Source of the DNA: a bacterium
Lineage (GTDB): Bacteria; Patescibacteriota; Microgenomatia; UBA12405
Length of the DNA: 64,000 nt
Assembly: GCA_021817905.1 (NCBI GenBank)
Contig: JAKAFM010000001.1
Coordinates: 3,985 to 67,984, forward strand
Direction: 5' to 3'
The notes beneath the pieces are model-generated. The model saw only the letters and a program-made list of their open reading frames with translations. It was not told the DNA's origin and ran no database searches. Below are positions 47,533 to 54,036 of this stretch, piece by piece (position 1 is the stretch's first letter; the number at the start of each line of letters is the position of its first letter). A program made the translations under genes and the position numbers.

Positions 47533-48257
47533 TGTTACTTTTAATCTTCATCCTAAAAACTATCATTCAACCGATATCCGCTTATGCCATTGCCAAACCT
47601 ACCCTGGCAATTACCCCAACATTAATCGCCACCACGTCTGCTGATCTTTCTCCTACAGTTACTCCCGACAGCACCTCACTAACCGAAATCCAAAAGATAA
47701 GAGAAGCCGTTCAGCAAAAAGTAAAAGAAAAATTAAGTGAAATTGTTGCCCTTGATACAACCAAAAAAAGAGGTGTCTATGGTAACATTTCAACAATTAG
47801 TGCATCCACCATCACTTTAACCAAAGACGACAACTCTACTATCCAGATAAACACCGATGACACCACCGCATTTATTGATATTAATCGCAAAAAAATCGAC
47901 ATTACCAAACTAAAAACTGGGCAGTCTATATTAGTCATGGGCTACAACAATAATGATGGTAGCCTGGCCGCCAAAAGAATAGTAGTTAACGATCCCTCAT
48001 ACCTTCCCGTTAAAAAAATTATCACCATGGGAAAAATTGTTGACCGTTCCCAAGCTACAAATGTCGCTTTAATTGTTCCTCTCACCGACAAAAACACTCA
48101 ATATCAAGTATCTCTAGTTAACGCCACCACCATTGTCGATAGTACTAATAAGAAATTAGCGATAAAAGATGTTACCGTCGGCAAAAAAGTCATTGCTATA
48201 TTGTCGCCTAGCGCCAAAAATAAAACCTATACCACCGACAAAATTATTATCTTCTAA
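47532..48257 (+). CDS. Hypothetical secreted protein
   Basis: 241 aa with a signal peptide (ISAYAIA). Start overlaps the stop of the preceding gene. Confidence 0.5.
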   Translation: MLLLIFILKTIIQPISAYAIAKPTLAITPTLIATTSADLSPTVTPDSTSLTEIQKIREAVQQKVKEKLSEIVALDTTKKRGVYGNISTISASTITLTKDDNSTIQINTDDTTAFIDINRKKIDITKLKTGQSILVMGYNNNDGSLAAKRIVVNDPSYLPVKKIITMGKIVDRSQATNVALIVPLTDKNTQYQVSLVNATTIVDSTNKKLAIKDVTVGKKVIAILSPSAKNKTYTTDKIIIF

Positions 48258-48823
48258 CTAATCCTTCGTCCCAGCCCTACGCTCTCTTTTCTCAATAGTG
48301 AACTATAATTGGTTATCCAATTTTTTTCAAAAATACCAACAGTAATCCTATTGCCTGCAAACTGAGAACTGGCACAAACATCCACCGTCTTAATCGCTGC
48401 CAAAACCATGAGATACGAATTAAAAGAACTGGTTTCAAATACAACATTAACATTTGGCACTATTTCCCCGACAACATAATCTACCCGCTCATTACAAATA
48501 TCTTGCCAATGGCAATATCGCCACCTATCCTGCTCCGACCACTCCGCACTCTCCATTACCTTCGCCCACGACAACCTCGACCTCAAATACTCTTCCACGT
48601 GTGATAATAATCTCCTTCCATATCGTGCTTCACTTTGAAAGAAATAATCAGCAATTGCGATTGGATAGTCTTGAATTATCATTAGCCCCTTTTCCGGATC
48701 AAGATAATTACTAATAATGTTTTTTATGCGTGGTTCACGCCGCAAAACTTCGTGATACATCAAAAATGTGTCCATCCCTGCCAGTGCCCGAATCATCCGG
48801 TAACGTTCTTCGCTGATTCCCAT
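48254..48823 (-). CDS. Hypothetical protein
   Basis: 189 aa with no recognisable motif. Confidence 0.45.
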   Translation of the reverse strand: MGISEERYRMIRALAGMDTFLMYHEVLRREPRIKNIISNYLDPEKGLMIIQDYPIAIADYFFQSEARYGRRLLSHVEEYLRSRLSWAKVMESAEWSEQDRWRYCHWQDICNERVDYVVGEIVPNVNVVFETSSFNSYLMVLAAIKTVDVCASSQFAGNRITVGIFEKNWITNYSSLLRKESVGLGRRIS

Positions 48824-48856
48824 AATATGTAATTATATAATTTTTACCATTTTATA

Positions 48857-48976
48857 TTGACTTTAAAGCCGCCAACCAGTAAAATTCCCCTATGAAATTG
48901 AGCATTTCATTTCATCATCACGCCAACTAAGTGTGGCGGGTGTTTTGGTAAATCCCCGTCAAGGGGATTTTTTTTG
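48857..48976 (+). promoter_or_regulatory. Putative histidine leader-peptide transcription attenuator (copy A): promoter, His-His-His mini-ORF and intrinsic terminator
   Basis: -35 TTGACT (48857-62), 17-nt spacer, -10 TAAAAT (48880-85). Mini-ORF 48892-48930 ATG AAA TTG AGC ATT TCA TTT CAT CAT CAC GCC AAC TAA = MKLSISFHHHAN. Hairpin CGCCA/TGGCG overlaps the stop codon. Terminator AATCCCC-GTCAA-GGGGATT followed by T8 (48951-48977). Confidence 0.55.
48892..48930 (+). CDS. 12-aa His-rich leader peptide MKLSISFHHHAN (attenuator copy A)
   Basis: Three consecutive His codons immediately before alternative hairpins and a terminator. The start is leaderless or nearly so relative to the predicted promoter. 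Confidence 0.45.
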   Translation: MKLSISFHHHAN

Positions 48977-49043
48977 CTTCTTTAGGTCTAATTTTGAACG
49001 AAGTGCTAAAATTTGTCTAAAGAAGCAATCCGTCTCAAACGGA

Positions 49044-49070
49044 TTAACATGGTGGTAGACGCTCAATTGG
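49044..49070 (+). other. Duplicated 5' fragment of tRNA-His (5' flank + acceptor + D-arm start)
   Basis: TTAACATGGTGGTAGACGCTCAATTGG versus the genuine gene TTAACATGGTGGTATTAGCTCAATTGG at 49143-49170. Confidence 0.5.
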
Positions 49071-49150
49071 CGAATCTGCAGATGAGTCCGTCGACTGACG
49101 GATTAGAGGCCTAATTGATATACTCCACTAAAATAACGTTTCTTTAACAT

Positions 49151-49225
49151 GGTGGTATTAGCTCAATTGGTTAGAGCGCAGCTCTGTGAAAGCTGAGGTT
49201 GCCGGTTCAAGTCCGGTATACCACC
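49151..49225 (+). tRNA. tRNA-His (anticodon GUG) with genome-encoded G-1
   Basis: G-1 then acceptor GTGGTAT/ATACCAC. D-arm GCTC-AATTGGTTA-GAGC. Anticodon loop CTGTGAA. T-loop TTCAAGT. Discriminator C. Confidence 0.85.
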
Positions 49226-49235
49226 CCTAAATAGT

Positions 49236-50510
49236 TCAATGACTCCAACGAAATCTTCTGGATGAGGTGTACCATGCACTACCACTTCCCGACCTAGCCC
49301 CGACTCTATTAAATTCCTCAATTCTTCTAAAGACACTCGGAAAACGCGCTTCTCTATTCCAATCGGGGTCAACTTTATTAACCATTTCCGGATTATTCAA
49401 ATAGAAAGTAATAAGTTCTGCCATTATCGCTAGACCTTCTTTACATACGTCATAAACATCTTTATACATTGGTCCGTTTTCCTGAGTACTAAGTGCTCTA
49501 AGAATAAAACCACGCGATTGACGATAATACTCTTCTAATTGAGAAGGAGAAACTAAATCGTTTCTTTTAACATTTTTGGGAAGATTTGAAAGCAAATCTA
49601 AAGCATAAAAAACAAAAGCTGGAAGGAGTCTCATATCAGAAATAATTTCACCATTATGCCTAACCCCCTTCATCTCTTGTGCTTCAAAAGATGATAGGTG
49701 TCTCATGGGATATTTAGTATTTCTATTATCGACCTCAAGCAAAAAGTGCCCAATATTTTCCAAATAAAAATCAACAGTATCGGCATTTAAAAACCCCAGT
49801 TCTAACAGTTTCTCTACAAAATAAGTATCTGCTGCCATACTAAATATTCGTTTCATGTCAGCCCATCCCATATATTTTTCAATCTGAGCTATTTCTTTTG
49901 GTAATCCATGGTCGTTAGTTTCACGCAAAACGTTTTCGGGCAATGCCATACATATTAACAACGGGGCCAACATAAAAGCAGTTTCCGAAGTATAGGGTGG
50001 TGCTGATAAATTAATTCTCTGTACCCCTGCCTGTAATAACTCACTCATTCGTTCTTCCGCATAAATATCGTCAAGCATTTTTCTATTATTCTCAATTATT
50101 ACCTTGTTACCATATTTATGTCCAAAATTTTCATTTATAGCTTCAAACAGTTCATCAAAAGTCACTTGACCTTTCATTTCCGCCAAAGTCGACAAGGTAA
50201 TCTTAACAAAATCAAGTGGTACCAATCTCGGCTCAACTAACCCATAAATAGACTTATCTTCTTGATATAACTCCCAACGATGATCACGATACCACGTTTC
50301 GCCATGTTCGCTAATACAATGTTCCTCATATTCTTTCATACATGCTTTAATCTGCCTATCAAATCCTCCTAGTCCAGAATAAGTACTGTCTGTACCAAAA
50401 ACCCAACCTGCTTGATTAAGTGTAATAACTGGCACCAACTGAACAGGTGGCAAATTACTCCGTATCGCCCTCCTGAATCCATCATAACCTTGAGATGTTT
50501 CAATTTTCAT
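49236..50510 (-). CDS. Hypothetical 424-aa protein bracketed by the two attenuator-like elements
   Basis: Long ORF of unrecognised family. An alternative frame near the 3' end (49163-49372) looks protein-like, suggesting a possible frameshift or degraded C-terminus. Confidence 0.5.
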   Translation of the reverse strand: MKIETSQGYDGFRRAIRSNLPPVQLVPVITLNQAGWVFGTDSTYSGLGGFDRQIKACMKEYEEHCISEHGETWYRDHRWELYQEDKSIYGLVEPRLVPLDFVKITLSTLAEMKGQVTFDELFEAINENFGHKYGNKVIIENNRKMLDDIYAEERMSELLQAGVQRINLSAPPYTSETAFMLAPLLICMALPENVLRETNDHGLPKEIAQIEKYMGWADMKRIFSMAADTYFVEKLLELGFLNADTVDFYLENIGHFLLEVDNRNTKYPMRHLSSFEAQEMKGVRHNGEIISDMRLLPAFVFYALDLLSNLPKNVKRNDLVSPSQLEEYYRQSRGFILRALSTQENGPMYKDVYDVCKEGLAIMAELITFYLNNPEMVNKVDPDWNREARFPSVFRRIEEFNRVGARSGSGSAWYTSSRRFRWSH

Positions 50511-50669
50511 TTGTAATCTAAGTTACTATAGGCTATAATTATACCATTATGCTCAAAACTAATCTTTTTATCCATCATACCCATACCGTGGTCACCACCC
50601 GCGGGGTAGTGGTCTGACCCTAAATTTTGAGTAGTCTTTTTAATCCCCGCACCCGCGGGGATTTTTGTG
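50511..50669 (+). promoter_or_regulatory. Putative histidine leader-peptide transcription attenuator (copy B) upstream of the ORF73-dapF-like-hisS-rpmE-prfA' operon
   Basis: -35 TTGTAA (50511-16), 17-nt spacer, -10 TATAAT (50534-39). Mini-ORF 50549-50617 = MLKTNLFIHHTHTVVTTRGVVV. 1:2 hairpin GGTCACCAC/GTGGTCTGACC. The 11-mer CACCCGCGGGG (50596-50606) is repeated exactly in the terminator (50650-50660) and so can form an antiterminator with the terminator 5' arm. Terminator AATCCCCGC-ACCC-GCGGGGATT followed by a U-tract (50642-50669). Confidence 0.55.
50549..50617 (+). CDS. 22-aa His-rich leader peptide MLKTNLFIHHTHTVVTTRGVVV (attenuator copy B)
   Basis: Three His codons in four positions (CAT CAT ACC CAT), placed just upstream of region 1 of the alternative hairpins. 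Confidence 0.45.
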   Translation: MLKTNLFIHHTHTVVTTRGVVV

Positions 50670-50787
50670 TCTCTTTAGGTCGAAATTTAAACGTAGTGAA
50701 AAATTTTGCCTAAAGATACCATCCGTGAGCGCCAGCAAAGCGGATATCTCAGACGGGTAGATCCCCTCCTTATTATTTTTTAAAACT

Positions 50788-51009
50788 ATGACCGAAATTC
50801 AAAAAAATAGTCAATTAACCTGGGACGTTTCTGAAGAAGAAGCTAACCGTATAAATTTACCTGCAAATGATTGCCGGCGATTTAATGGCGGACAAATCGC
50901 CACTCCAGAGCAACAAGCTGCCTGGAAAGTTCGACCGAGAACAACATTAGTATCCATTGCAAAAAACCAATTAATAGTCATTAATCGACTCAGGGAGGAA
51001 CTACTATGA
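50788..51009 (+). CDS. Hypothetical 73-aa protein, first gene of the hisS operon
   Basis: Its stop overlaps the next gene's start (ATGA). No recognisable motif. Confidence 0.4.
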   Translation: MTEIQKNSQLTWDVSEEEANRINLPANDCRRFNGGQIATPEQQAAWKVRPRTTLVSIAKNQLIVINRLREELL

Positions 51010-51716
51010 ACATAAAGTATCAACTCATTTCCCCCTCTGGGAATCTTACCGCCATAATTAATGGTCAGTATTCAGCCTCAGAAAAAAGTCGTATTAATCA
51101 AAAAATATTCGCCACCAATAAACTGGTCGAACAAATTGGTTACATCTTTCAAAAAGATTCGAAAAATTATTTTGAAATGATGGGTAATGAATTTTCCGGC
51201 AATGGTTGTCGCGCCGCAACATTGGCATTTCTCAATAATAATCCGGGAAAAATTTCATTTTTTACCTCTGGTATCAATAAAATAATAATCGGAAAGATAG
51301 ACAATGGTAATGCAACAGTCGCTATTCCTTCTCAAAAAGTGAACTTTATCAAAATAAGCAATACTATTTATTCAACAGTAATTTTCAATACCTTAATGAT
51401 CATTTCTGCAGATAATATCAACGATAAATCGAAAATTATCAAAAGATATTCTGATAAATACAATGCTATCGGATTTATGAGTTATCAAAAACAAGATAAC
51501 CAAATAAAGCTCAATCCCTGGTTTTGGGTCAAAGAAACCAATAGTCTCATTAATGAAACAGCCTGCGGCAGTGGCTCGATAGTTGTTGCCAAACTATTAG
51601 CTAAATCAACTATTTTCCAACCTTCAGGTCAGGCCCTCAAAATTAGGTTTAATAAACAAACAATCAATCTCAGTGGACCCATAAAATTGCTTACTGCTTA
51701 TAATGTTAAAATCTAA
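51006..51716 (+). CDS. DapF/PhzF-fold (diaminopimelate-epimerase-like) protein, non-canonical
   Basis: EFSGNGCRAATLAF resembles the DapF box xCGNGxRC, with Ser in place of the first catalytic Cys. ETACGSGSIVVA matches the second-Cys box TxACGTGA. 236 aa. Confidence 0.45.
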   Translation: MNIKYQLISPSGNLTAIINGQYSASEKSRINQKIFATNKLVEQIGYIFQKDSKNYFEMMGNEFSGNGCRAATLAFLNNNPGKISFFTSGINKIIIGKIDNGNATVAIPSQKVNFIKISNTIYSTVIFNTLMIISADNINDKSKIIKRYSDKYNAIGFMSYQKQDNQIKLNPWFWVKETNSLINETACGSGSIVVAKLLAKSTIFQPSGQALKIRFNKQTINLSGPIKLLTAYNVKI

Positions 51717-51718
51717 CT

Positions 51719-52963
51719 ATGAATCAATCAAAACCACAAACTCTCAAAGGTTTTCGTGACTTTTTACCCGACGATATGCGGGTACGCAACTACGTCAAAA
51801 AAATCTGTATCGAAGCCTTTGAACAGTTCGGTTTCGAACCTCTCGAAACCCCAACGCTTGAATATGCTTCTACCTTGATGGGTAAATATGGGAAGGAAGC
51901 CGATAAATTAGTCTATAAATTCAAAGATAATGGCGATCGTGATGTTGGCCTCCGCTATGACTTGACCGTCCCCACCGCCAAAGTTTTAAGCATCTACCAA
52001 CAACAGCTTCCCCTTCCTTTTAAGCGCTATCAAATTCAATCGGTTTGGCGTGCCGACAAACCTCAAAAAGGCCGCTATCGGGAATTCACCCAATGCGACA
52101 TCGACACTTTTGGTCCCCCCTCCCCTTTAAACGATGCCGAAATGGTCGCGGTTATCTATACTATTTTACAAAAATTAAATTTCAAAAAGTACCAAATTAA
52201 AATAAACAGTCGTCAAGTCCTTTTTGAAATAATTACCCGCTCAGGCCTTGAAGAACAAAAATTTACAGTCCTCCAGTCAGTCGATAAATTAAGCAAAATC
52301 GGATATGATGGAGTACAAAAAGAACTCATTTCCAAGGATATTAGCCAGGAACAGATAGAGTTACTGTTTAAATACGTCAAAGAGGCTCAACCAGACGATT
52401 ATCTAAAATCAGTCTTTTCTAAGCTGTCGGAATTTGGTGTCCCTCAAAGTGCCTATAGTTTTGACCCTACCATAGTCCGAGGACTTGACTACTACACCGG
52501 CCCAATTTTTGAAACCTATGTTGAAGAGCCCAAGATCGGATCAATTACCGGTGGTGGTCGCTATGATAATCTAGTCTCCAGCCTTGGCGGCCCCAATATT
52601 TCCGCCGTTGGCACTACGCTTGGCTTTGACCGTATTGTAGACTGTATTATCGAGCTCAAATTGCTCCCTCAACTACAAACCTCTACCACCAAAGTCATGG
52701 TTGCCAATTTTGGCCTCGACACTGAGAAAGAAGCGATAGGTCTAGCCACCACACTTCGTGCCAACAAAATCGCCACCATGCTCTACCCTACCTTTGACAA
52801 ATTAGGCAAACAATTTGCCTATGCCGACGCCAAAAAAATTCCCTTTGTCGCTGCTATTGGAAGTGATGAAGCAAAAGCCGGAAAAATTATGCTCAAAAAC
52901 ATGGCTAAAAAAGAGCAAACTTTAGTTAGTCAAGAAGACTTATTATCAATTCTTATGATATAA
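51719..52963 (+). CDS. hisS: Histidine--tRNA ligase
   Basis: N-terminal KGFRDFLPDDMRVRN signature of HisRS. Class II motifs. C-terminal anticodon-binding domain. 414 aa. Confidence 0.95.
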   Translation: MNQSKPQTLKGFRDFLPDDMRVRNYVKKICIEAFEQFGFEPLETPTLEYASTLMGKYGKEADKLVYKFKDNGDRDVGLRYDLTVPTAKVLSIYQQQLPLPFKRYQIQSVWRADKPQKGRYREFTQCDIDTFGPPSPLNDAEMVAVIYTILQKLNFKKYQIKINSRQVLFEIITRSGLEEQKFTVLQSVDKLSKIGYDGVQKELISKDISQEQIELLFKYVKEAQPDDYLKSVFSKLSEFGVPQSAYSFDPTIVRGLDYYTGPIFETYVEEPKIGSITGGGRYDNLVSSLGGPNISAVGTTLGFDRIVDCIIELKLLPQLQTSTTKVMVANFGLDTEKEAIGLATTLRANKIATMLYPTFDKLGKQFAYADAKKIPFVAAIGSDEAKAGKIMLKNMAKKEQTLVSQEDLLSILMI

Positions 52964-52971
52964 TAAAGCCC

Positions 52972-53238
52972 ATGAAAGCCTCAATCCATCCAAAATATAA
53001 CGATCAATGCCAGGTTAGCTGTGCCTGCGGCAATAAATTCGTCACCGGCTCTACGCTTGACAAAATCGAAGTCGAAGTTTGTTCTCATTGCCACCCTTTC
53101 TTCACCGGTCAGCAAAAATTCGTGGATATTAAAGGTAAAATTGATAAATTTAAAGAAAAAGTTGCCAAAGGTAAAGCTCATGCTATTGTGGCTGCTGATC
53201 GCCAAGCCAAGAAGGCTGCCGCTAAAAAAGAAAATTAG
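52972..53238 (+). CDS. rpmE: 50S ribosomal protein L31
   Basis: MKASIHPKY... with a CxxC...CxxC zinc ribbon (CACGNKF...CSHCHPFFTG). Confidence 0.9.
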   Translation: MKASIHPKYNDQCQVSCACGNKFVTGSTLDKIEVEVCSHCHPFFTGQQKFVDIKGKIDKFKEKVAKGKAHAIVAADRQAKKAAAKKEN

Positions 53239-53301
53239 ATAAATTTGCAGCATACGACTATCATTAGAAATTTGAAATTAGAAATTTTGAATTATTGAGG
53301 T

Positions 53302-54036
53302 ATGCCCACTACCAATTCAGACATTGCCATACTTGAATTCCGTCCAGGACCAGGAGGAGAAGAAGCCAGTATCTGGTTAAACGACCTTATGAACATGTAT
53401 GTCCGTTATGCCAACAAGGTTGGATGGAAGGTTAACCAGCTCGACGCCAATGTCGTTCAAATTAAAGGCTTTGACGCCTATAATCAACTTAAATTCGAGA
53501 CCGGTACTCACCGCGTCCAACGAATTCCGGTCACCGAAAAACATGGCCGGATACACACCTCCACTGCCGCTGTAGTTGTTCTCCCCCAAGTCAGTTCTAA
53601 TGACATAAAAATAAATCCCGATGACCTAGAAATTAGTGCTACTCGCGCTGGAGGCCACGGCGGTCAAAACGTTAACAAAGTCTCCACTGCTATCCACCTT
53701 CTTCACAAACCTACCAATATTGTTATCGATGTTCGCCAGGAACGGTCCCAGCAACAAAACCGGGAAATTGCCATGGATATATTGCGCTCAAAATTATGGG
53801 AAATTGAAGATGAAAAACGAGGGAGTCTCTTAAGCGGAGCCAGAGCGATTATTGGCCAAGCTAAACGCGCCGACAAAATTCGTACCTATAACTATGCCCG
53901 CAATCAAGTCAAAGACCACCGCTTGGAATCAATGAGTTTCAACAATCTCGACCGTATCATGCAAGGCGACCTTGACGACCTGCTTCTCAACCTCTCAATT
54001 CTCGAAGAAACCAATAATAATGTTATTAAACAATAG
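53302..54036 (+). CDS. prfA: Class I peptide chain release factor, RF1-like (PxT type) but lacking N-terminal domain 1
   Basis: PVT tripeptide in the context RVQRIPVTEKHGRIHTSTAAVVVLP, which is RF1-like. GGQ motif RAGGHGGQNVNKV. Only 244 aa: the alignment to RF1 begins near RF1 residue ~110 at FRPGPGGEEA. The upstream space is occupied by rpmE. Confidence 0.75.
   Translation: MPTTNSDIAILEFRPGPGGEEASIWLNDLMNMYVRYANKVGWKVNQLDANVVQIKGFDAYNQLKFETGTHRVQRIPVTEKHGRIHTSTAAVVVLPQVSSNDIKINPDDLEISATRAGGHGGQNVNKVSTAIHLLHKPTNIVIDVRQERSQQQNREIAMDILRSKLWEIEDEKRGSLLSGARAIIGQAKRADKIRTYNYARNQVKDHRLESMSFNNLDRIMQGDLDDLLLNLSILEETNNNVIKQ

Follow-up and report, generated by a model that had tools for sequence, protein, structure and literature searches.

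What would a DapF-like protein that lacks the first catalytic cysteine do in an operon for histidyl-tRNA synthetase (HisRS)? This question is raised by the window analyzed here, a stretch of 64,000 nucleotides on contig JAKAFM010000001.1 (GCA_021817905.1) of a bacterium of the Patescibacteriota (Microgenomatia). In this window, an open reading frame (ORF) at 51006–51716 (+), with the start codon ATG and the stop codon TAA, encodes such a protein of 236 residues directly upstream of the HisRS gene hisS. The original prediction proposed for it a histidine-related role rather than that of DapF in lysine or peptidoglycan biosynthesis, and this proposal is now supported by sequence profiles, fold, pocket residues, the attenuator, and the coupling to hisS. 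Cofactor-independent histidine racemases were recognized only recently, first CntK and then HisR in 2024. Judged by its profile matches and predicted structure, the window protein (hereafter the HisR-like protein) is a short, Patescibacteria-type member of this HisR/CntK family, which has the DapF fold, and is not a DapF. We consider, with a probability of about 0.5, that it is an active histidine-converting enzyme that is induced at low His-tRNA and turns D-histidine into L-histidine for HisRS.

Family and fold of the HisR-like protein

The hisR-like gene has a GGGAGGA Shine-Dalgarno sequence 7–13 nt 5′ of its ATG, and 16 independent contigs encode an identical protein, including DAIEQR010000002.1 of the metagenome-assembled genome (MAG) GCA_027347555.1. 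One search returned 44 homologs at E ≤ 1e-3, and another returned 1106 cluster representatives. A Candidatus Shapirobacteria MAG carries a close homolog (46% identity), and the closest sequenced relative outside the species, locus L088, encodes a HisR-like protein with 62% identity. Two motif boxes characterize the protein. The second box, N-E184-T-A-C187-G-S-G, contains the DapF-type Cys motif ETACGSG, as first noted from the sequence. The first box reads E62-F-S64-G-N66-G-C68-R-A and is preceded by M-M-G-N. Ser64 aligns with Cys67 of HisR and Cys72 of CntK, and the predicted replacement of the first catalytic Cys by Ser is thus confirmed. The neighboring cysteine had been placed three residues after this serine, but Cys68 is actually the fourth residue after Ser64, with three residues lying between them.

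Only two NCBIfam models matched the protein, and both are histidine racemase models: HisR of Fusobacterium (1.4e-17) and CntK (2.1e-16). The precomputed Pfam family of the window protein and all 44 homologs is PF26317 (CntK_N); the Pfam copy used for our own profile search did not include this model, so that the PF26317 assignments are the precomputed ones. Sequence matches in the PDB were HisR (9CR1/9CR6) and CntK (6JIW/6JIS/6L4L), with no others. A structure prediction had been suggested earlier as a check, and its outcome agrees with these assignments. The AlphaFold2 (AF2) model, built on the 44-sequence alignment, has a predicted local distance difference test score (pLDDT) of 95.9 and a predicted template modeling score (pTM) of 0.92. 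In this model, Ser64 and Cys187 each directly precede a helix (residues 65–75 and 188–198), a predicted placement that corresponds to the two-base geometry of the DapF-like superfamily. In a Foldseek search against the PDB, the best nine matches were all CntK or HisR (E-values from 3e-18 to 4e-15, template modeling scores of 0.72–0.78), with CntK at the top (3e-18). The best DapF and PhzF-family chains followed about six orders of magnitude behind (1.8e-12), O-ureidoserine racemase and proline-racemase-family proteins were weaker still, and 3-hydroxyproline dehydratase 4K7G was also among the matches.

Since the protein has the DapF fold and CntK is among its best matches, it might be a canonical or moonlighting DapF of lysine or peptidoglycan metabolism, or a CntK in an opine-metallophore (staphylopine-like) pathway. 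We regard this as highly improbable, and the canonical roles of DapF and CntK are close to excluded. No DapF model matched at E ≤ 1 in Pfam (DAP_epimerase, PF01678) or NCBIfam (DapF, TIGR00652), and DapF structures share 12–17% identity with the window protein and rank below HisR and CntK by fold. DapF orthology was rejected on these grounds. The thiol/thiolate pair of DapF is likewise missing, since the first position is Ser64 and only the second is a cysteine, Cys187. Within ±10 kb, neither dap/lys genes nor cntL, cntM/Staph_opine_DH, or cnt transporter genes were found; the annotation covered was that of the 64-kb window and ±10 kb, and the context is one of translation and histidine. A staphylopine-type cntKLM metallophore cluster was rejected because neither cntL nor cntM is nearby, and both were also absent among the recurrent neighbors of 80 HisR-like loci. 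A PhzF-like isomerase was also rejected (best E-value 1.8e-12, 10–12% identity); the window protein keeps its Cys box, whereas PhzF has an acid/base Glu in place of Cys. Finally, the sequence SGN was rejected as the normal HisR/CntK motif, since the Ser-containing structures 9CR1 and 6JIW are engineered Cys-to-Ser mutants of proteins that have Cys in the wild type.

Serine at position 64 and the histidine pocket

The residue at position 64 was surveyed in a sample of 188 relatives, comprising 156 Cys forms and 32 Ser forms; Cys187 is present in 187 of them. The Ser forms are limited to short (~210–260 aa) proteins of Microgenomates-type Patescibacteria. Their codons differ: Ser64 is encoded by TCC in the window and in loci L085, L088, and L089, by AGT in L086, and by AGC in L091 and L044, and the sister locus L090 has Cys (TGT) at this position. 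No single substitution converts TCY into AGY with Ser retained, and each of the two is one step away from TGY; Ser therefore arose from Cys more than once. In agreement with the codons, Fitch parsimony on a rough neighbor-joining tree gives at least ten Cys/Ser changes at position 64, with Cys at the root. A sequencing artifact or gene decay was rejected in view of the 16 identical contigs, the 32 Ser forms, and the three different Ser codons. Ser64 is thus a natural and recurrent residue that is tolerated or selected, with no decay.

The remainder of the active site is retained. Asn13, Glu42, Glu62, Gly65, Asn66, Glu184, Gly188, and Ser189 of the window protein correspond to Asn18, Glu49, Glu65, Gly68, Asn69, Glu206, Ala210, and Ser211 of HisR, and these pocket residues are proposed in the HisR/CntK studies to bind the α-amino group, the carboxylate, and the imidazole. 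As for the two catalytic cysteines of HisR, Cys209 is present as Cys187, and Cys67 is changed to Ser64. The equivalents of the HisR histidine contacts are invariant or nearly so among the relatives, Ser forms included: Cys187, Glu62, Glu184, Gly188, and Ser189 are found in 32/32 Ser forms, and Asn13, Glu42, and Asn66 in nearly all of them.

A conserved pocket would also be expected of a pseudoenzyme. According to this explanation, the Ser64 forms have no racemase activity and serve as histidine-binding partners or sensors, which may modulate HisRS, or HisG where it occurs, in the manner of HisZ, a HisRS paralog that is the histidine sensor of HisG. Translational coupling links the gene to hisS, and relatives show a hisG-X-hisS triad in which X is the HisR-like gene. 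The free change between Cys and Ser at position 64 within the clade fits a residue that is no longer needed as a base, and the C67S variant of HisR is nearly inactive (PMC11602996). We nevertheless consider a pseudoenzyme unlikely, since the invariance of Cys187 and the whole second box in 32/32 Ser forms would be unexpected if binding alone mattered, and Cys and Ser forms occur in the same genomic slot (L090 vs L089).

The single remaining thiol may instead support changed chemistry, that is, a one-base reaction such as elimination, dehydration, or isomerization of histidine or a derivative. In the proline racemase family, a Cys-to-Thr/Ser change turned epimerases into 3-hydroxyproline dehydratases, and the Cys-to-Thr precedent has been reviewed (PMC8142540); the 3-hydroxyproline dehydratase 4K7G is among the fold matches of the window protein. 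The Ser forms are recurrent and conserved, and position 11, two residues before Asn13, covaries with position 64: Cys forms have Gly there, and Ser forms of both subclades have Ser, Ala, or Asn. On the other hand, histidine offers no leaving group for an elimination, and the residues proposed for the α-amino group, the α-carboxylate, and the imidazole are all unchanged. The interleaving of Cys and Ser forms on the tree within one syntenic slot also argues for one shared function. Taken together, changed chemistry seems rather improbable.

Another possibility is that Cys68 rescues the Ser form, acting as the L-face base or as a proton relay through Ser64, and that the protein remains a competent two-base racemase. 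The C-G-N-A-S sequence of HisR and the S-G-N-G-C sequence of the window protein look like a shifted or swapped Cys/Ser pair, and the helix that begins immediately after residue 64 contains position 68 in its first turn. Cys68 is found in 17 of the 32 Ser forms but in only 5 of the 156 Cys forms. The Cys forms nearest to the Ser/Cys clade, P0016 and P0046, already have Cys68, which therefore appears to predate the loss of Cys64. However, in the other 15 Ser forms, position 68 is occupied by Thr, Ser, Leu, or Ile, and no further Cys is close by, which weakens Cys68 as a general compensator. From helix geometry, the i+4 side chain would lie one turn below the helix N-terminus and would be unlikely to reach the Cα of the substrate. 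A rescue by Cys68 is accordingly very doubtful.

Predicted His-codon attenuators, operon content, and conserved neighborhood

The hisR-like gene is the second gene of a block whose order is ORF73, hisR-like, hisS, rpmE, and a release factor gene, and the block is preceded by a putative His-codon attenuator. The promoter-like site P2 (TTGTAA-17-TATAAT, 50511–50539 (+), a 10/12 consensus match) is the only strong promoter-like site upstream of the block. The ATG of His leader 2 lies 10 nt past the −10 hexamer of P2. This leader (50549–50617 (+)) is a 22-codon ORF that encodes MLKTNLFIHHTHTVVTTRGVVV up to its stop codon, with His at codons 9, 10, and 12 (HH-T-H; 50573–50578 and 50582–50584). Terminator 2 follows at 50642–50668 (+), where AATCCCCGC-ACCC-GCGGGGATT forms a hairpin (50642–50663) before a T run. 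When the transcript is folded up to the 5′ arm of the terminator, the His-codon stretch (region 1, 50572–50591) pairs with region 2 (50599–50612). An antiterminator was seen only when the 3′ arm of the terminator was omitted and the His codons were masked; GCGGGG (50601–50606) is then predicted to pair with CCCCGC of the terminator arm (50645–50650) at −14.1 kcal/mol. This predicted behavior matches the kinetic attenuation model and is not proof of it.

The design recurs in relatives. The leader core HH(T/P)HTV is conserved in 18 further loci with synonymous codon changes. The leaders of L086, L089, and L090 contain HHTHTV or HHPHTV and differ synonymously in their His and Thr codons, and a motif scan of metagenomes found 15 more distinct leaders, all 5′ of hisS genes with 59–71% identity to that of the window. 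In 19/19 distinct leaders, a terminator follows, and an alternative pairing with its 5′ arm is predicted: a CGGGG element 17–20 nt past the last His codon pairs with this arm in the masked fold (19/19). The pairing in L090 shows a compensatory change (ACGGGG/CCCCGT) relative to the window (GCGGGG/CCCCGC). No His_leader family and no T-box was found by Rfam in 48500–53500 at E ≤ 1, where only a tRNA and a chance small RNA match were returned, and there were no T-box leaders in 13 related loci. The His-codon attenuator ahead of the hisR-like/hisS operon therefore appears to be real and conserved, and the leader, terminator, and alternative pairing predicted here bear out the attenuator shared with hisS in the original prediction.

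The first gene of the block, ORF73 (50788–51009 (+)), encodes a small conserved protein, and its stop codon overlaps the hisR-like start codon (ATGA). Its homolog in metagenome locus L194, a 64-aa protein, lies between the same leader and hisS; the local alignment score is 129.5 against 22 ± 4.3 for shuffled sequences, and the shared core is W-DV..EE..R..LPANDCRRFNGG. ORF73 has no Pfam or other family match and no obvious ribosome-binding site. Its origin as a hisG remnant was rejected (score 31.5 against 27.5 ± 6.4 for shuffles, with no tblastn match). Downstream of the hisR-like gene, the full-length hisS (histidine-tRNA ligase; 51719–52963 (+)) scores 397.5 bits with TIGR00442 (cutoff 286.75) and encodes the Pfam domains tRNA-synt_His and HGTP_anticodon, an anticodon-binding domain. 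It starts 2 nt past the hisR-like stop codon, and the stretch from the leader terminator to hisS contains neither a terminator-like site nor a strong promoter-like site, in accordance with the shared transcription unit proposed originally. The gene rpmE for ribosomal protein L31 (52972–53238 (+); precomputed PF01197) follows 8 nt past hisS and is syntenic in L085, L086, L089, L090, and L093. The last same-strand gene of the block (53302–54036 (+)) encodes a short class-I release factor of 244 aa with the Pfam domains PCRF and RF-1. Its PCRF match covers profile positions 100–194 only, the C-terminal half, and is accompanied by the RF-1 domain; the release factors in the same position in relatives have 237–301 aa.

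A second attenuator, predicted to have the same design as that of leader 2, precedes the adjacent tRNA-His gene. Downstream of the promoter-like site P1 (TTGACT-17-TAAAAT, 48857–48885 (+), a 10/12 consensus match only), His leader 1 (48892–48930 (+)) encodes MKLSISFHHHAN up to its stop codon, with three consecutive His codons (HHH). Terminator 1 at 48950–48977 (+) consists of the hairpin AAATCCCCG-TCAAG-GGGATTT (48950–48970) and a T run, and GGCGGG (48935–48940) can instead pair with its 5′ arm (alternative fold, −10.3 kcal/mol). The tRNA-His (GTG) gene with an encoded G-1 lies at 49152–49227 (+) (ARAGORN; Rfam, 69.3 bits). Equivalent leaders precede tRNA-His in relatives, encoding MNTLMSTHHHHHQ (L086), MNTACVISNHHHTTK, and MNTAMEKSIHHTSK, each ending at a stop codon, and L086, L089, and L090 share with the window the succession of leader 1, tRNA-His, leader 2, (cargo), and hisS. 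We know of no previously described leader-peptide attenuator that controls a tRNA gene. L086, L089, and L090 have nothing at the place where the window carries an ORF of 424 aa (49236–50510 (−)), which is therefore a lineage-specific insertion that splits the tRNA-His/hisS unit.

Several further observations concern this locus. The 424-aa ORF, between tRNA-His and leader 2, has no Pfam or NCBIfam match, and no family match was found for the adjoining ORF of 189 aa (48254–48823 (−)) either. At 49044–49070, the 8 nt flanking tRNA-His and its first 19 nt recur as a 27-nt copy (24/27 identical), 100 nt 5′ of the counterpart at the real gene (49144–49170), and this copy looks like a trace that a rearrangement or insertion left at the tRNA locus.

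The wider neighborhood was analyzed in 80 species-representative loci from the family alignment (79 of them Cys forms), with ±6 kb around each. hisS lies in this range in 18/80 loci, usually co-directional and within 1 kb; by our rough estimate, chance linkage would be about 1% for a single-copy gene in a genome of 1–3 Mb. These hisS-linked loci span Patescibacteria classes, Clostridia, and one Bacteroidales MAG. In L034 (an Oscillospiraceae MAG), two tRNA-His genes, hisS, and the HisR-like gene are followed by an M15-HisG fusion, and in L052 (a Bacteroidales contig), tRNA-His, hisS, and the HisR-like gene stand together. hisG is located immediately 5′ of the HisR-like gene in the P0028 contig, and a frameshifted hisG takes this place in L088. 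Neighbor clusters built with jackhmmer show an M15 gene (VanX-type D-Ala-D-Ala dipeptidase) in 28 of the 87 loci searched, usually immediately downstream. Other recurrent neighbors encode a GNAT domain (fused or adjacent), TrpR-like proteins, polar amino-acid ABC transporters, and M20 peptidases, and close relatives have PF00144 and M24 peptidases. Short ORFs with at least three His in five codons that end within 450 nt 5′ of the HisR-like start were found in 16/84 loci and before 23/607 control ORF starts (3.8%; binomial p = 1e-7), and in Clostridia further His-run leaders precede the first gene of the operon. Since the family is linked to hisS, tRNA-His, hisG, D-peptide-type peptidases, transporters, and His leaders, the context points to histidine supply for translation, rather than metallophores or the cell wall.

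Individual loci add detail. In L088, hisG (342–1013) lies between the terminator and the HisR-like gene and has a single frameshift near position 480, which may reflect either a pseudogene or an assembly error. In the Clostridia MAGs L013 and L020, a leader of the form MKN..KVHHHF is followed by two or three HisRS-like genes (one of them short and HisZ-like), hisG, a HisR-GNAT fusion, and an M15 dipeptidase gene. TrpR-like genes just 5′ of the HisR-like gene (L032, 2648–2965; L041, 1371–1478; L055, 5829–5924; L093, 1899–2270) encode His-rich tails containing RLHHSHT, KRHHHTS, NSHHHTR, and VMHHHPS, with a T run 43–56 nt downstream. The 3′ end of the TrpR-like gene may itself serve as the attenuator leader.

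Of the 15 additional operons with leader 2, some have only hisS behind it, and in others an M20, S66, or GNAT-like gene or an ORF73 homolog comes before hisS. In view of this varied cargo, the conserved core is the attenuator and hisS (with tRNA-His), and the HisR-like gene is therefore one cargo gene among several that can replace one another; most of them plausibly act in the release or processing of amino acids. In L158, L161, L183, L190, L205, and L112/L120, the gene found between the attenuator and hisS encodes an M20 peptidase, an S66 LD-carboxypeptidase, or a GNAT-like protein, the last with a Cys-rich insert.

Such an arrangement invites a broader interpretation, which we offer as speculation and think fairly improbable: the Microgenomates-type HisR-like protein would be an asymmetric single-thiol enzyme or a histidine sensor that forms, with HisRS and tRNA-His, a "histidine-charging stress" regulon. 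This interpretation has two versions. The protein may effectively convert D-His to L-His in one direction, or it may epimerize and thereby disarm a histidyl-adenylate-like inhibitor of HisRS, alongside the GNAT, S66, and M20 gene products. GNAT and S66 enzymes provide the two immunity activities known against aminoacyl-adenylate mimics of the microcin-C type, and a link of the GNAT/S66 cargo to HisRS inhibitors is conceivable. If true, the regulon would include a leader-peptide attenuator of a tRNA gene, the first known to us.

Proposed mechanism and comparison with known systems

For the histidine-converting enzyme that we prefer, the following mechanism is proposed. When His-tRNA(His) is plentiful, the ribosome would clear leader 2, region 1 would pair with region 2, and the terminator would form and stop transcription. 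When His-tRNA(His) is scarce, the ribosome would stall on the His codons and cover region 1, and the freed GCGGGG of region 2 could pair with the 5′ arm of the terminator, so that the operon would be read through. The HisR-like protein would thus be made together with HisRS when histidine charging fails. Free histidine would bind to the conserved HisR pocket (Asn13, Glu42, Glu62, Gly65/Asn66, Glu184, and Gly188/Ser189), and Cys187, as the D-face base, would remove the α-proton of D-histidine. The Ser64 side, by its hydroxyl, a bound water, or a Cys68-assisted relay, would give back a proton to the opposite face and so yield L-histidine for HisRS. The two aziDAP isomers alkylate different cysteines of DapF, the L,L form that of the N-domain and the D,L form that of the C-domain (PMC12039745), and by homology position 64 would therefore serve the L face and Cys187 the D face. 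Since the net flux would run from D-His to L-His with Cys187 abstracting the proton, the Ser64 side would only have to donate one, and this direction is sensible for a gene that is induced by histidine shortage and coupled to HisRS. Natural Cys-to-Thr racemases such as EcL-DER are reported to be unidirectional (PMC8142540). These unidirectional enzymes are a precedent for the proposed D-to-L conversion, and the dehydratases are a precedent for the changed chemistry considered above.

In this proposal, we infer the substrate, the D-to-L direction, and the catalytic competence of the Ser form. Several points weigh against it. The profile scores are far below the equivalog cutoffs (64.3 bits vs 400 and 60.2 vs 300), so that the protein probably belongs to a distant subfamily of HisR/CntK, and the substrate is extrapolated from enzymes with ~23% identity. 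Racemization has an equilibrium constant of 1, and the Haldane relation forbids a true one-way enzyme; a "D-to-L specialization" could therefore only mean a flux direction set by the consumption of L-His. We know of no source of D-histidine for these organisms. The engineered C67S variant of HisR, whose wild type has Cys67 and Cys209, shows greatly reduced turnover with D- and L-His, and the turnover of the C209S variant is also greatly reduced (PMC11602996). With nothing but Ser64 at this position, the enzyme may therefore work very slowly. The ease with which Cys and Ser replace each other could just as well indicate that residue 64 has lost its importance, as in a pseudoenzyme or in one-base chemistry. 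In the 15 sister operons, leader 2 and hisS are present with no HisR-like gene, which is therefore dispensable cargo. The evidence for attenuation consists of sequences and predicted folds, and the terminator is always present in full-length minimum free energy folds.

The family and fold of the HisR-like protein are already known, and "histidine racemase" is the label that automatic pipelines give to some members. hisS goes unmentioned in the HisR paper, whose authors call the physiological purpose of HisR unclear (PMC11602996). In the searchable literature, we found nothing on a natural recurrent Ser variant in the HisR/CntK family, on a cross-phylum linkage of this family to hisS, tRNA-His, and His leaders, on twin attenuators, or on a histidine racemase in connection with HisRS or Patescibacteria. 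The present locus and its relatives may thus give a first clue to the cellular role of the HisR-like family. With the repeated Cys-to-Ser change at a supposedly essential base, nature provides its own test of the two-base mechanism. The question is whether one face can make do with a hydroxyl or a water molecule or whether a binding protein has been made from the fold. With the predicted twin His attenuators, leader-peptide attenuation would also be known from Patescibacteria, from an operon for an aminoacyl-tRNA synthetase, and from a tRNA gene.

Among known systems, HisR of Fusobacterium nucleatum (9CR1/9CR6, NF052224; PMC11602996) is the best sequence and fold match of the window protein. 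Both have a two-domain DapF-like fold in which two central helices carry the catalytic residues at their N-termini, both conserve the histidine-contact residues, and both are encoded outside a metallophore cluster. However, the window protein is only ~24% identical to HisR and ~30 residues shorter, and its natural Ser is the same change as the low-activity C67S substitution. The HisR gene adjoins folate genes, whereas the window gene adjoins hisS, tRNA-His, and a His attenuator.

CntK of Staphylococcus aureus (6JIS/6JIW/6L4L, PF26317, NF033599) belongs to the same Pfam family and shares the E-x-C/S-G-N and E-x-x-C-G-S-G boxes. It makes D-His for the metallophore staphylopine, whereas the regulation in the window implies induction at low charging with L-His, and the window protein has Ser64, with no cntL, cntM, or cnt transporter gene nearby. 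DapF (PF01678/TIGR00652) shares the superfamily fold and the two-base architecture; the window protein has Glu62 where DapF has a small or hydrophobic residue, a contrast that the authors of the HisR study drew. A natural hydroxyl residue in place of one catalytic Cys is also found in the Asp/Glu racemases EcL-DER and MMP0739 and in trans-3-hydroxy-L-proline dehydratase, and these Cys-to-Thr/Ser members show altered directionality or chemistry (PMC8142540). They have other folds or substrates, however, and in the family of the window protein the position toggles repeatedly between Cys and Ser.

The predicted attenuators resemble the enterobacterial his leader (Rfam His_leader) in their short ORF with clustered His codons, the mutually exclusive 1:2, 2:3, and 3:4 pairings, and the intrinsic terminator. 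In contrast to that leader, the window leader has no Rfam match, contains only three His codons, and is found in Patescibacteria. The enterobacterial leader controls biosynthetic genes, whereas the leader in the window precedes hisS and a variable "histidine-acquisition" cargo, and its twin stands before tRNA-His.

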